Source: a virus
Taxonomy: Duplodnaviria; Heunggongvirae; Uroviricota; Caudoviricetes
DNA length: 11,709 nt
Virus record (IMG/VR): IMGVR_UViG_2548876944_000019
Coordinates: 1 to 11,709 of that record
Strand: one strand, 5' to 3'
A model generated the notes under the pieces. It was not told the origin of the DNA and did not search any database. It worked only from the letters and a program-made list of their open reading frames with translations. The translations under genes were made by a program, and so were the position numbers. Positions 569 through 4,667 of the stretch are shown piece by piece. How positions within the stretch are numbered: the stretch's first letter is position 1; each line of letters opens with the position of its first letter.

Positions 569-1414
569 GTGAATAAAAATCCCTGGGATATTCCAGCATG
601 GCACGCTCTGGGCCGAGAAGCATCTTTAGTTACACAGCTCATTGGTTCTGGGGCAACAGCCATAGGTAAAGCCAATTATGCAGACAAAATAGGTGAATAT
701 TACACAGCATTTTTTGGGCTTTCTGTAGGTTTTGAGAGACTTGCTAAACTAATACTTGTTGCGCACTATGCCATTGAACACAAAGGGAAAATGCCTGACG
801 AGAATATTGTAAGAAAATTTGGACATAAGCTCATTGAATTAACCAACGAGGTTGATAGCATTTCTAAAAAAATGCAACTATCTCTGAGATATTCACGTCC
901 TACACATAAAATTACCTACAAAATACTTGAATGTTTAGATTCCTTTGCTGATGCCCGACGGGGACGTTACGCAAATTTCTCCTCATTAAGCAGCCCCAAT
1001 TTAACCAATAATGAACCTATTAATAAATGGTGGGGAGAAGTAGCCGAGAGTATCCTTGAAAAACATTATTATTATACAGTTGAACAAAGACGTGTTGAAG
1101 AAAATGCTAGGTTTATCAATGCCACTCTTTCACCGTATACAACGGTCATGTATATGAATGAAAGTACCAACATTATGCAAGACCTTATATCAGCCTCCAT
1201 CCGTACTGGACAAAATACCATTGTTCAAAAGTGGGGAAGATTCTATTCTCTTAGCATCGCTCGTTGGCTTGCCACAGTATTAACAGAACTGTCTGATATA
1301 GCTTCTCATAAATATGGAATAATTAGTTTTTATGGCCTTAGTGAACATTGTTGCAGTTATATAGTTGAAGATAGTTTTTTAAAAAACAGAAAAATATGGC
1401 CACTTCGCCAATAG
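569..1414 (+). CDS. Hypothetical protein (281 aa), candidate accessory or defence cargo gene
   Basis: GTG start at 569 preceded by AAGGA at 554-558; stop TAG at 1412-1414. AT-rich relative to the tail genes. No hydrophobic membrane segments noticed. No family recognised by eye; the only weak hint is one R-x5-H pattern (RYSRPTH). Confidence 0.6.
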   Translation: MNKNPWDIPAWHALGREASLVTQLIGSGATAIGKANYADKIGEYYTAFFGLSVGFERLAKLILVAHYAIEHKGKMPDENIVRKFGHKLIELTNEVDSISKKMQLSLRYSRPTHKITYKILECLDSFADARRGRYANFSSLSSPNLTNNEPINKWWGEVAESILEKHYYYTVEQRRVEENARFINATLSPYTTVMYMNESTNIMQDLISASIRTGQNTIVQKWGRFYSLSIARWLATVLTELSDIASHKYGIISFYGLSEHCCSYIVEDSFLKNRKIWPLRQ

Positions 1415-1418
1415 TTAA

Positions 1419-1733
1419 CTAGAAAATCTGCATAAGGGGGAGAAATCCCCCACCTGTAATAACATCACTACTAAAATTAACACCTCGTTCGCGCAACTCC
1501 TCTACCAGCACGACAAGATGCCGCATACTGCGCCCCAGTCGGTCCAGTTTCCAGACCACCAGCGTGTCACCTGCCGATAATGTCCTGAGCAGCTTTTTCA
1601 GTCCTGGTCTGTCGGACTTTGTACCGCTTATCTTGTCTTCAAAAATCAGCTCACATCCTGCACAGTTCAGCGCATTACGTTGTAGATCTGTGTTCTGGTC
1701 ATTTGTTGACACACGTACATAGCCAATAAGCAT
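1419..1733 (-). pseudogene. pin: Truncated serine DNA invertase (Din family, Pin/Gin/Hin/Cin-like); catalytic N-terminal domain only
   Basis: N-terminus MLIGYVRVSTNDQNTDLQRNAL...VVWKLDRLGRS...LRERGVNF matches the resolvase/invertase catalytic domain as I recall it, with the catalytic Ser in the RVST motif. After residue 87 (nt about 1473) the sequence becomes unrelated (SSDVITGGGFLPLMQIF) and stops at 104 aa. Full-length Din invertases are about 180-190 aa and end in an HTH DNA-binding domain. Confidence 0.85.
1436..1451. terminator. GC stem-loop (GGGGGA-GAAA-TCCCCC), possible terminator at the junction of convergent genes
   Basis: 6-bp perfect stem with a GAAA loop, 22 nt after the stop of the 281-aa ORF and inside the non-native 3' tail of the truncated invertase ORF. 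The plus strand lacks a U-tract after it; the minus strand has a partial T-rich run (TTATGCAGATTTTCT). Confidence 0.3.
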
Positions 1734-1787
1734 GAGAAATAACCCTGTAAAAATCCGGGATCATGCCATCTGAGCCGAATAACTGCA

Positions 1788-1813
1788 TTTTCTAAAAGGT
1801 TGGTTTGGGAGAA
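1788..1813. other. Left inversion crossover site (gix/pix/hix-like, 26 bp), core TT at 1800-1801
   Basis: TTTTCTAAAAGG TT GGTTTGGGAGAA. The reverse complement (TTCTCCCAAACC AA CCTTTTAGAAAA) resembles the Din-family site pattern TTCxxxxAAACC-AA-GGTTTxxGAxAA recalled from hix/gix. It lies 55 bp upstream of the invertase start, as in Mu and e14. Confidence 0.6.
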
Positions 1814-2293
1814 GGCTCTGCATTACCTGTTGGTGTCCCTGTTCCGTGGCCTTCAGCCACCCCGCCGACAGGCTGGCTGAAATGCAACGGTGCGGCTTTT
1901 TCTGCTGAAGAATACCCGGAACTGGCAAAGGCTTACCCGACAAATAAATTGCCTGATTTACGCGGTGAGTTTATTCGTGGCTGGGATGACGGACGTGGAG
2001 TGGATAACGGAAGGGGATTATTAACGCTTCAGGACGGTGCGATTGTCAGTCATAACCACTATTGGGGAATCTGGACTTCACGAACTAACGACCAGACTCT
2101 GGGAAGTTTTTCAGGCACCACGATTTTAAAACAAATCACGCCCCTGTCTCCGGCCATTGACTTCGATAATTACCAAATTCCCAACCCGGCTATTACAGAG
2201 GGTGGTGTTGTTGCGGCAACGACTAAACCTGCAGGTGCGAATGAAACACGCCCACGAAATGTCGCTTTTAACTATATTGTGAGGGCTGCATAA
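1796..2293 (+). CDS. Alternative tail-fibre C-terminal (receptor-binding) segment, Sv'-like, without its own start codon
   Basis: The frame opens immediately after the TAA at 1793-1795. It has no ATG; the ORF track start at 1805 is TTG with a weak SD. It carries a tail-collar-like motif (GWLKCNGAAFSAEEYPELAKAYP). The stop TAA at 2291-2293 overlaps the ATG of the downstream Tfa gene. Confidence 0.7.
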   Translation, partial: KVGLGEGSALPVGVPVPWPSATPPTGWLKCNGAAFSAEEYPELAKAYPTNKLPDLRGEFIRGWDDGRGVDNGRGLLTLQDGAIVSHNHYWGIWTSRTNDQTLGSFSGTTILKQITPLSPAIDFDNYQIPNPAITEGGVVAATTKPAGANETRPRNVAFNYIVRAA

Positions 2294-2895
2294 TGAATAA
2301 CGCAGAATTAAACAGTGAATTAATTGCCACTATGGCAGGAGAAATTACTGTTTATAACTTTGACGTCATGAGTCGGGAGTATATTTCAGCTTCAACTGAA
2401 TATCTTGCTGTTGGTGTCGGCATTCCGGCATATTCCTGTTTAGATGCTCCAGGCACCTACAAAGCTGGTTATGCAATCTGCCGCTCTGCAGATTTTAACT
2501 CATGGGAATATGTACCAGACCATCGCGGTGAAATCGTCTATAACACCGAAACGGGAGACGCCAAAGAAATCACAACTCCGGGTGATTACCCCGAAAAAAC
2601 AACCACTATCGCCCCGTTAACGCCATACGATAAATGGGATGGTGAGAAATGGGTGACGGATACTGAGACACAGCATAGCGCCGCAGTAGACGCGGCAGAA
2701 GCACAACGTCAGTCACTGATTGATACTGCAATGGCTTCCATTAGTCTGATTCAACTGAAATTGCAGGCCGGGCGGAAGCTGATGCAGGCAGAGACCACCC
2801 GACTTAACACTGTGCTGGATTACATTGACGCGGTGACGGCAACAGATACCAGTACCGCGCCGGATGTCATCTGGCCTGAACTGCCGGAGGAGTAG
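2293..2895 (+). CDS. Tail-fibre assembly protein (Tfa/U'-type chaperone) paired with the alternative fibre tip
   Basis: 200 aa, coupled to the upstream Sv' frame by a TAATG overlap. The C-terminus (LDYIDAVTATDTSTAPDVIWPELPEE) is the conserved Tfa C-terminal motif. It sits convergent to the other Tfa gene. Confidence 0.8.
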   Translation: MNNAELNSELIATMAGEITVYNFDVMSREYISASTEYLAVGVGIPAYSCLDAPGTYKAGYAICRSADFNSWEYVPDHRGEIVYNTETGDAKEITTPGDYPEKTTTIAPLTPYDKWDGEKWVTDTETQHSAAVDAAEAQRQSLIDTAMASISLIQLKLQAGRKLMQAETTRLNTVLDYIDAVTATDTSTAPDVIWPELPEE

Positions 2896-3313
2896 GCCAT
2901 TCAATATCTGGCGCACTGGAAGTATCGACCAGTTCCAGTGCGTCCAGATAATCCAGCCACAAATTATATTGCGCCAGTTCGTCACCTTTCAGACGACCAA
3001 TAGCGGCTTTACCGGGCCACTGCTTACTATTGATATAATAGTTAGCCTGCTCAATACGGGACCTTTTTTCGGCGTCAGCAGTTCTAACAAGTTCTTCGTG
3101 AGTCGGTTTAGGTTCATCTACCCATTCAGGGAAGCCATCATTCCCTGCTGCACGTATCTTGCCATCCGGTGCATTTTCTGCTTTCCAGGAGATAAATCCG
3201 TCCTCATCAAAATCGACTCCCTCATCAGGCCATTGCCCGCTTGCCAGGTAGCTATCCTTAAGGGAGTAAGGGAAAAATTCGTTTGTAACTGCTGAGTATC
3301 TGTATTTGGTCAT
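2867..3313 (-). CDS. Tail-fibre assembly protein (Tfa/U-type chaperone) for the currently expressed fibre
   Basis: 148 aa, immediately downstream of the fibre gene (fibre stop codon 3316-3318, ATG at 3313). The C-terminus (LWLDYLDALELVDTSSAPDIEWPTPP) is the conserved Tfa motif. Confidence 0.85.
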   Translation of the reverse strand: MTKYRYSAVTNEFFPYSLKDSYLASGQWPDEGVDFDEDGFISWKAENAPDGKIRAAGNDGFPEWVDEPKPTHEELVRTADAEKRSRIEQANYYINSKQWPGKAAIGRLKGDELAQYNLWLDYLDALELVDTSSAPDIEWPTPPAVQAR

Positions 3314-3315
3314 AT

Positions 3316-3987
3316 TTATTTCCCTATGGCTATCCAGGCAATTTCTGCTCCTGGAGTGCTCCAGTTGGCAATTCGGATTGTTGAAAGATCAGCTGACGAC
3401 ACGCCAACTGGTTTTGAAGGTGAGGGATCTGAACCCCAGAACGAAGCAAGAACAATATAGCCTGAGGTAGTAAAAGGGATTGGCAGCGTCCTTACCGCAA
3501 TCTGTCCTGCCGCCATGGTTGTCCTCCCGCTCTGAATAATTGTCCCGTCTGGAAACTTTACCCACCCACTACCACTGGTCCATGCAGACATGTCTGGTAG
3601 TTGGTTAGCACCTGTTCCGACATCTCGTTTCGCCGCTTCGCCCAAACCAAGATTTGAGAGGGCCGTTTTCACCGTGCCATCCGATTTGATATCACCAAAC
3701 GGATTCTTGCGGCTCAGGTATTCAACAGCAAACCCCGATCCCAGCAATTCAACAAAACCGGGCAGATCACCATTATCAAGCACATCCCGTTGCGTTTTGT
3801 CACTTACAAACTGGGCCAGAGCTGCAGCAATAAAGCTGGCCTGCCGAATAACCTTATTGACTTGCGCACTGGATGCTTTCCCTGCTGTAAATCCGGATAA
3901 AAGCGCAGGCAACGCTTCCCATTCCTCCTGCGACATAACATTGGCATTTTTACCCGTTGCGAATGCTTTAAAGTCATTTTTTGCCAT
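3316..3987 (-). CDS. Tail-fibre protein (constant N-terminal part fused to the currently oriented variable C-terminal part)
   Basis: The ATG at 3987-3985 overlaps the TGA of the upstream gene (ATGA), so it is preferred over the in-frame ATG at 4005 given in the ORF track. The right crossover site lies in frame inside it (ALSNLGLGE). It is followed by a Tfa gene. Confidence 0.8.
3637..3662. other. Right inversion crossover site (inverted relative to the left site), core AA at 3649-3650
   Basis: TTCGCCCAAACC AA GATTTGAGAGGG. Its reverse complement matches the left site at 13 of 14 positions across core plus inner half (TTGGTTTGGG[C/A]GAA). It lies inside the tail-fibre gene at the constant/variable junction. 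Confidence 0.6.
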
Positions 3988-4667
3988 CAGAGTAATACTC
4001 CCCATGCCCCTACATCAAAACCACTGATGAATTCGTTATCCATATCAAAACCAAAAAATTTTGAACCTTCCGATGGGGTTTCCACCGAAGGTGTTTCAAT
4101 GCCACCCGCCCACACCCCGGCGGCTTTTACTGTGAGATATCCCTGTTTAATTGCAGCAATTAACTCACGCGATACATCTGAAATATCAGTATCAGGAAAG
4201 ACCCAGACCGATATCGTCATGTCCTGGTTATCGACAATCTGCATTCGCAGCCCGGATCCTGCTGTTGCCGCGTCAAGAATTGCCGGAAGCGAATCATTCC
4301 GTCCGTCCCAGTTATTAATCGCAATCTTCGCTTTAAGAATGACACGATAAGTTTCATCGCTGAGATACATGTATCCAGAATCAGGATCATATGGCCCCTG
4401 CCATACCCCCTGATCATATCCAAGCCCGTCGGTATCCCAGCTGAAATAGACACCTGAGATAGGCTGGCTGACAACACGGCTACGTCCGATCCACAATCCC
4501 AGAATGTCAAGTTGCACACCAACCGCAGAGTCAATATCAAATGCAGTAATCAGCCCTCTGGTGGCAGCCGCAACATCAATAAGTGGCCGGGTCATCAGAT
4601 CAACATGCGCAAGAAATTTAGGTTTGGTGGCGTGGTAGTTCGTGATTAGTTCGGTGTATTTGCTCAT
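3987..4667 (-). CDS. Baseplate/tail protein, gpI-like (Mu gp48 / P2 gpI position)
   Basis: 226 aa; sits between the gpJ-like gene and the tail fibre; ATGA overlaps at both ends. Assigned by position and size, not by a recognised motif. Confidence 0.6.

Follow-up and report, generated by a model that had tools for sequence, protein, structure and literature searches.

The window analyzed here, an 11,709-nucleotide stretch of a Caudoviricetes virus record, carries two convergent tip-plus-chaperone cassettes between a pair of inverted repeats, with the constant part of a tail fiber gene on one side and the remains of a serine invertase gene on the other (Table 1).

Table 1. Features of the predicted fiber switch and its surroundings in the window
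Feature	Position	Strand	Details
Low-GC 281-aa ORF	569-1414	+	in place of the lost invertase 3' half
Truncated serine invertase, 104-aa ORF	1419-1733	-	Pfam Resolvase residues 3-88, E = 2.3e-30
Recombinational enhancer homologue	1644-1715	-	invertase nucleotides 19-90
Left crossover site, pixR-like	1788-1813		outer half TTTTCTAAAAGG, core TT 1800-1801, inner half GGTTTGGGAGAA
Predicted invertible segment	1802-3648		1847 bp between cores; two convergent tip-plus-chaperone cassettes
Silent alternative fiber tip, tail collar domain	1805-2293	+	Pfam Collar E = 8.1e-16; PHROG tail collar fiber E = 1.6e-77
TfaE-like assembly chaperone, silent tip	2293-2895	+	Pfam Caudo_TAP E = 4.8e-30; PHROG 105 E = 1.3e-94
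Assembly chaperone, currently expressed tip	2867-3313	-	Pfam Caudo_TAP E = 4.8e-29; PHROG 188 E = 9.9e-53
Currently expressed variable fiber tip, gp53-like C-terminal domain	3316-3648	-	Pfam Gp53-like_C E = 3.5e-9, residues 150-228
Right crossover site, pixL-like, degenerate	3637-3662		+ strand TTCGCCCAAACC AA GATTTGAGAGGG; core 3649-3650; inside fiber gene
Constant fiber N-terminus, outside segment	3651-4005	-	PHROG 11303 and 1396, residues 1-126 only

The arrangement is that of a host-range switch: the constant N-terminus lies outside the segment, the alternative C-terminal tips lie inside it, each with its own chaperone, and either tip can be fused to the N-terminus in frame. Both cassettes are intact open frames, and their chaperone genes overlap by 29 bp. 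The silent tip frame is open from 1796, with an in-frame TAA at 1793-1795. The ATG at 3987 is the more likely true start of the fiber, and the constant N-terminus is 99% identical to the fiber N-termini of L003 and L004, two related prophages whose tips differ.

Din-family sites are 26 bp long, with two imperfect 12-bp half-sites flanking a 2-bp core, and the two sites of a system are inverted relative to each other. The initial annotation had placed such a pair at the ends of the segment, and this is confirmed by a shared 14-mer, the longest inverted repeat and the top Din-matrix scores. The 14-mer, TTGGTTTGGGMGAA, has exactly two copies in the window, one on each strand, at 1800-1813(+) and 3637-3650(-); the expectation for matches with up to two mismatches is 0.21, and two or more were obtained in 6 of 200 shuffles. 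The longest inverted repeat within 1400-4100 (I1) is the site pair itself (24 nt, 83% complementary). A position matrix was made from the published Din sites with pix excluded (PMC3241671, Table 3). Across the whole window, the left site ranked first at 24.8 bits and the right site second at 16.9 bits, and the best unrelated position after them scored 5.3 bits. The matrix maximum per shuffle averaged 9.7 bits (sd 2.7, largest 18.2; 200 shuffles); the proposed Din-family match is better than chance. Aligned with the published gix, hix, pix and cix sites (PMC3241671), the left site is identical to pixR at 23/26 positions and the right site to pixL at 21/26.

Both sites have the same core dinucleotide, a requirement for religating the exchanged ends: TT at 1800-1801 and AA (TT on the other strand) at 3649-3650. 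They also share the conserved TTC-CCCAAACC inner half. In reverse complement, 3637-3662 reads CCCTCTCAAATC TT GGTTTGGGCGAA, and the 16-mer TTGGTTTGGGAGAAGG, which starts the left core at 1800 and runs to 1815, has been described as the inversion repeat of e14 (PMC12529663). The left outer half-site is non-coding, 3' of the in-frame stop, and scores 8.7 bits, whereas that of the right site reaches 1.4 bits, below every published half-site scored (4.2 to 16.2 bits) except the left half of hixR (0.8 bits), which is a working site notwithstanding. The canonical pixL outer half-site is CTCTCGAAAACC.

No third crossover site of the kind expected for Min-like multiple inversion rose above noise anywhere in the window, the next-best position being the 5.3-bit one. 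Multiple-inversion systems have more than two crossover sites, and shufflons also use a tyrosine recombinase and 19-bp sfx repeats. A system of this type (Min of p15B; Rci shufflons) was rejected, with only two sites in the window and a recombinase remnant of the serine type.

According to the initial annotation, both sites encode Leu-Gly-Leu-Gly-Glu in the fiber frame. The frames are as it gave them (constant part, AAT CTT GGT TTG GGC GAA; silent tip, GTT GGT TTG GGA GAA), and the constant part does read N-L-G-L-G-E; the silent tip, however, reads V-G-L-G-E, as GTT encodes Val. Inversion would rebuild the Leu codon CTT from the C of the outer arm and the TT core. The proposed in-frame fusion at the core holds: flipping is predicted to yield an uninterrupted frame of 282 aa, and its junction, ...NLGLGEGSALPVGVPVPW, is present in annotated natural fibers of E. 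coli. The predicted protein matches a natural 282-aa fiber end to end and is 98.9% identical across the junction to a natural fiber of 260 aa. The predicted junction DNA is at least 80% covered in 507 E. coli genomes. The delimitation of the segment between the two cores likewise stands.

Homologous segments are known in E. coli in both orientations. L003 and L004 share flanks of 3314 and 2865 bp with 100% identity, and the 1623 bp between these flanks are inverted; the local invertase of this pair is the same truncated stub as in the window. One of the L003/L004-type junctions was matched at 100% by five genomes and the other at at least 99.8% by four records. In a second pair, L008 and L011 (JE86-ST05/ST02), the inverted inner segment lies between flanks of 5085 and 3234 bp with 100% identity; pinE is intact in this pair, and its left site matches that of the window at 26/26 positions. 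In both pairs the exchange falls inside the shared TTGGTTTGGGAGAAG, which puts the breakpoints in related genomes at the sites proposed for the window, with a resolution of 15 shared bases rather than the 2-bp core. No isomer of the window's exact mosaic was found in the genome, metagenome and complete E. coli genome collections searched; therefore, the A/C difference between the inner arms gives no means of assigning the exchange to the core. An exact-pattern scan for the right-site 21-mer had no hit in the genome and metagenome contig collections, and the window combination (query 3320-4400) had no record among complete E. coli genomes. The E. coli relatives of the window prophage, which lie between yfhH and yfhL, have exact pixL and pixR sites.

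The invertase gene is broken. Its homology, in alignments with PinE, Cin and Gin, is limited to codons 1-88 (window 1467-1733), and homology to the pinE of L008 also ends at window 1467. The stub is without the E-helix and the helix-turn-helix DNA-binding domain, the remainder of the ORF being unrelated sequence, and the window has no intact adjacent serine invertase combining a catalytic domain, an E-helix and a C-terminal helix-turn-helix. Because only residues 1-88 are homologous, the system in the window is not autonomous. The stub is identical to e14 pinE at 235/250 positions, and the same stub is found in the E. coli relatives, where it is marked incomplete by PGAP. The neighboring 281-aa ORF is also conserved among these relatives; its GC content is 0.36-0.40, against about 0.49 for the phage genes, and no family match was obtained in Pfam, PADLOC, PHROGs or NCBIfam.

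The 5' part of the stub carries a stretch homologous to the Fis-dependent recombinational enhancer. Its coordinates were taken from the P1 record, in which the Cin enhancer is annotated at cin nucleotides 19-90. The corresponding stretch of the window matches the intact JE86 pinE, which adjoins a naturally flipping segment, at 72/72 positions, e14 pinE at 69/72 and cin at 56/72; it may serve as an enhancer. Two candidate Fis 15-mers (G-N13-C), at invertase nucleotides 22-36 and 71-85, are kept in pinE and gin; they are matches to the consensus only.

The closest known system is the P segment (PinE, pixL/pixR) of e14, a cryptic prophage of E. coli K-12. PinE, and also PinQ and PinR of other cryptic prophages, were shown experimentally to invert this segment at TTGGTTTGGGAGAAGG; pinE and pinE pinQ mutants are locked (PMC12529663). 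Both loci consist of a constant fiber, a tip with its chaperone, an inverted chaperone and tip, and an invertase, and the e14 order read in reverse (ycfK/stfP, tfaP, tfaE, stfE, pinE) is that of the window. They also share the 29-bp chaperone-gene overlap, the inner half-site TTCTCCCAAACC with its AA core, the site identities given above and the Leu-Gly-Leu-Gly-Glu junction. The segments differ in length (1847 bp in the window, 1797 bp in e14) and their outer half-sites have diverged. The local PinE is intact in e14, whereas the invertase of the window is truncated, and the TAA on the invertase side of the window means that no StfE/StfE2-type product can be made from an upstream ATG. The host prophages differ as well: the window has a DUF2612 and baseplate-J baseplate and is associated with yfhH/yfhL, whereas e14 has a ymfQ-type module and lies at icd. 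The G segment of Mu (Gin, gix) and the C segment of P1 (Cin, cix) have the same crossover-split fiber gene and alternative tip-plus-chaperone cassettes, and their invertase adjoins the segment with the enhancer in its 5' coding part. The invertase remnant of the window has 71-74% protein identity to the Mu and P1 enzymes. The segments of Mu and P1 are, however, larger (3-4.2 kb), with different tips and intact invertases, and their sites differ, with 15-19/26 identity to those of the window and a GA core in gix.

Taken together, we consider it highly likely that the window contains a Pin/e14-type (Din-family) invertible tail-fiber segment, at the end of a myovirus-like prophage of ~41 kb, and that the local invertase is dead. 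The inverted 26-bp pix-like sites, with cores at 1800-1801 and 3649-3650, would bracket a switch of 1847 bp. Through cleavage of the 2-bp cores, a serine invertase would put the collar-domain tip and the TfaE-like chaperone in the place of the expressed gp53-like tip and its own chaperone, and the reading frame would be held across the switch by Leu-Gly-Leu-Gly-Glu. Exchange at the core is predicted to give the junctions TTTTCTAAAAGG-TT-GGTTTGGGCGAAGCGG and CCCTCTCAAATC-TT-GGTTTGGGAGAAGGCT, in which the A/C base would move with the inner arm; a junction of GGGAGAAGCGG would not be an expected product of such an exchange. As the resident invertase is dead, any inversion needs a Din invertase that acts in trans and is encoded by a different prophage of the cell. 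Trans inversion is the same behavior as seen in e14, where the invertase of one prophage flips the segment of another at TTGGTTTGGGAGAAGG (PMC12529663); such action comes in addition to the local enzyme in e14 and would be obligatory in the window, and an anti-phage role is not claimed here. The segment of the window is probably a substrate for catalysis in trans and its degenerate right site may still be competent, but inversion in this mosaic may be slow or lost.

The last of these points leads to the strongest alternative, that the locus is a former Pin-type switch that no longer inverts, with the gp53-like tip fixed and the collar tip a silent fossil, after the invertase was truncated and a non-invertible fiber gene supplied a drifted copy in place of the right site. 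This reading is possible, if rather unlikely. It would account for an invertase reduced to residues 1-88, for a right outer half-site of only 1.4 bits and for the in-frame TAA that closes the invertase-side frame. It is also consistent with the 99.4% identity of 2895-3714, on the right of the segment, to prophage L009, a prophage with a single fixed fiber and no invertase in which the same right site is present, and with L013, a decayed segment of the same lineage; drift unopposed by selection for recombination may have altered the right site. However, relatives with the same stub occur in both orientations within flanks that are 100% identical, both cassettes remain intact open frames, and TT/AA is retained at both cores. 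In addition, inversion in trans is documented experimentally for e14 (PMC12529663), and hixR is functional although its left half scores lower still.

Further along the opposite line, the locus might be an orphan client switch that works despite its degenerate site, with the 5' stub kept for its enhancer and the fiber tip of this otherwise complete prophage set entirely by the invertases of its neighbors in the cell, other prophages, as a selected dependency. We regard this extension of the invertible-segment reading as doubtful.

It is very improbable that the repeat is simply the conserved Gly-Leu-Gly-Glu with which both tips start and no recombination site at all. The inner half and core do fall in the codons of a motif that many fibers share through conservation, and L009 has the same sequence without an inversion system. 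Against this, the left outer half fits the Din matrix in a non-coding position after a stop, the inverted sites flank two convergent cassettes with an invertase gene adjoining, the isomers of the relatives break exactly at the sites, and homology to P2-like phages starts at window 1800-1801 (query positions 395-401). RecA-dependent exchange needs far more than 15 bp. General homologous recombination between short inverted repeats, in place of a site-specific invertase, is consequently the least probable reading, scarcely credible even though the isomer breakpoints are narrowed only to a 15-bp identical stretch, given that the repeat matches published Din sites (PMC3241671) and that e14 inversion at the same repeat needs Pin recombinases (PMC12529663).

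For annotation, the silent tip and the split fiber gene are best read as one switchable gene. Textbooks have covered Din-type fiber switches and pix sites since the 1980s. The invertible segment adds little that is new in mechanism, as the system is of a known kind and its inversion repeat is the one published for e14; the only unusual feature of the switch is its broken invertase gene. A modest interest lies in natural history: in an E. coli prophage family that is widespread and, apart from this, complete, the invertase of the switch is dead, yet the segment occurs in both orientations, which fits recent experimental evidence for prophage invertases acting on each other's segments.

The two crossover sites proposed in the initial annotation, at 1788–1813 (left) and 3637–3662 (right), were confirmed in sequence as TTTTCTAAAAGG TT GGTTTGGGAGAA and, in reverse complement, CCCTCTCAAATC TT GGTTTGGGCGAA. 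The pair forms the longest inverted repeat within 1400–4100 (I1, 24 nt, 83%), and the 14-mer TTGGTTTGGGMGAA is present in exactly two copies, one per strand; a search tolerating two mismatches or fewer would be expected to give 0.21 matches by chance. Alignment with the published hix, gix, cix, pix, mix, and bix sites (Table 3 of PMC3241671), in the orientation of that table, matched the left site (TTCTCCCAAACC AA CCTTTTAGAAAA) to pixR at 23/26 positions and the right site (TTCGCCCAAACC AA GATTTGAGAGGG) to pixL at 21/26. A matrix built from the published Din sites excluding pix was scanned over the whole window, with 200 shuffles as a control. The left and right sites ranked first and second (24.8 and 16.9 bits), the best unrelated position scored 5.3 bits, and shuffle maxima averaged 9.7 bits (SD 2.7, top 18.2). 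The scan found no third crossover site in the window; this is therefore a simple two-site system. Of the four half-sites, the two inner ones score well, at 14.7 and 9.9 bits; the outer one of the left site scores moderately (8.7 bits). The right outer half-site is poor (1.4 bits); among the published half-sites scored, only the hixR left half (0.8) is below it.

The system is very probably a Pin/e14-type (Din-family) invertible fibre segment. The window segment is a homologue of the P segment of the E. coli K-12 cryptic prophage e14 and works likewise; the e14 P region has the window's gene order read in reverse, including a 29-bp overlap of the chaperone genes. In the window, a plus-strand collar tip and TfaE-like chaperone converge on the minus-strand fibre gene and its Caudo_TAP chaperone. 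An intact invertase, as found in autonomous Din systems, is the one membership feature that the window lacks.

Features of the fibre switch and its neighbouring block (window positions)
Feature	Position	Strand	Description
Expressed fibre gene	4005–3316	-	PHROG fibre families match residues 1–126 only; gp53-like domain at C-terminus
Chaperone after expressed fibre	3313–2867	-	Caudo_TAP
Silent tip	1805–2293	+	Collar domain; frame open from 1796, in-frame TAA before it
Chaperone of silent tip	2293–2895	+	TfaE-like
Invertase stub	1733–1419	-	Resolvase-domain ORF adjoining left site
ORF, 281 aa	569–1414	+	Sits exactly where invertase 3' half belongs

A join at the core between the constant fibre N-terminus and the silent tip is predicted to give an open frame of 282 aa, in line with the in-frame fusion originally proposed. 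The predicted protein aligns over its full length with the natural 282-aa fibre of an E. coli yfhH prophage (L004) and, across the junction, shares 98.9% identity with the 260-aa fibre of an e14-like prophage (L011); all three read ...NLGLGEGSALPVGVPVPW there. The predicted junction DNA is at least 80% covered in 507 E. coli genomes. Leu-Gly-Leu-Gly-Glu had been read from both copies, but the silent copy encodes Val-Gly-Leu-Gly-Glu because its first codon is GTT; the leucine reading holds for the fused protein, where the CTT codon takes its C from the right outer arm and its TT from the core. The fibre ORF has a possible start at ATG 4005, but ATG 3987 is more likely the true start, since relatives are annotated from it (MAKND...) and it shares one base with the stop codon of the DUF2612 baseplate gene. 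On the invertase side, TAA 1793–1795, inside the left outer half-site, shuts the frame. E. coli relatives with a canonical pixR have this frame open from an upstream ATG as the StfE/StfE2 frame; StfE/StfE2 reportedly blocks phage T2 adsorption.

Two natural isomer pairs were observed among relatives. L003 (strain 00_3230) and L004 (97-3250) carry the same yfhH prophage with the truncated stub; the inner 1623 bp are inverted between flanks that are 100% identical across 3314 and 2865 bp. One of their junctions is matched at 100% by five genomes and the other at ≥99.8% by four records. L008 (JE86-ST05) and L011 (JE86-ST02) come from isolates of a single series; both carry an e14-like prophage whose pinE is intact and whose left site is identical to that of the window (26/26). 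Their inner segment is inverted between flanks 100% identical across 5085 and 3234 bp (8.3 kb), and its orientation is the only difference at this prophage. Both pairs break within the shared TTGGTTTGGGAGAAG, which locates the exchange only to that stretch and is compatible with crossover at the core.

The segment 1467–3714 is, on its pattern of identities, a mosaic. Positions 1467–3034 are ~97% identical to the e14-like prophage L008, 2895–3714 share 99.4% identity with L009, a prophage integrated at dusA that has a single fixed fibre and lacks an invertase (L009 4294–5360), and the flanks are 96–97% identical to the yfhH prophage. The joint lies within the conserved, overlapping 3' ends of both chaperone genes (2867–2895). 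This combination was absent from the complete E. coli genomes searched, and the right-site 21-mer had no occurrence in the genome and metagenome collections. Because 2895–3714 matches L009, the right site comes from a lineage that may not have been keeping it under selection as a recombination site. A further prophage, L013, carries a decayed segment of the L009 fibre lineage in which the second cassette has left a chaperone relic truncated at its 5' end (L013 3628–4860). The switch is lost in both of these prophages, which share the window's fibre lineage. The chance that this particular mosaic is currently competent for inversion is perhaps slightly better than even.

Alignment with PinE, Cin, and Gin limits invertase homology to stub residues 1–88; the E-helix and helix-turn-helix domain are missing, with 16 unrelated codons in their place, and DNA homology to intact pinE ends at 1467. 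Judged from this truncation, the resident invertase is dead. The same stub occurs in every E. coli relative examined, where it is annotated as incomplete. It retains invertase nucleotides 19–90 (window 1644–1715), a putative enhancer identical to intact pinE (72/72) and matching cin at 56/72; the homologous P1 stretch is annotated as the Cin enhancer in the P1 record.

Upstream of the stub, a low-GC block (about 0.36, range 0.33–0.40, versus ~0.49) holds the 281-aa ORF, which had no family match in Pfam, PADLOC, PHROGs, or NCBIfam. E. coli yfhH-yfhL prophages keep it as a hypothetical protein (WP_001039127.1/WP_001039129.1), and it may represent cargo carried at the end of the prophage. A perfect 16-bp palindrome (CTAATTAATATATTGT ... 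ACAATATATTAATTAG, 7-nt loop) occupies 402–440 within the AT-rich spacer that precedes this ORF and is 90–93% conserved in E. coli relatives. The larger element, as seen in E. coli M-17, is a ~41 kb prophage lying between yfhH and yfhL; it carries genes for an integrase, replication, lysis, the head, and a contractile tail.

In Din systems, one invertase dimer binds each site, the enhancer with Fis bound to it brings the synapse together, and the segment is inverted by subunit rotation after a staggered cut of 2 bp. Because the local invertase is dead, catalysis would have to be supplied in trans by the invertase of another prophage. Such catalysis is plausible by analogy with e14 and because L003 and L004 differ in orientation despite their common stub. 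The e14 segment is inverted at TTGGTTTGGGAGAAGG by each of PinQ, PinR, and PinE, and is locked in pinE pinQ mutants (PMC12529663). Inversion in trans probably occurs in the yfhH prophage family. The initial interpretation is supported, with corrections, and this kind of system is already known; its sole mildly notable point would be an obligatory reliance on the invertase of another prophage.
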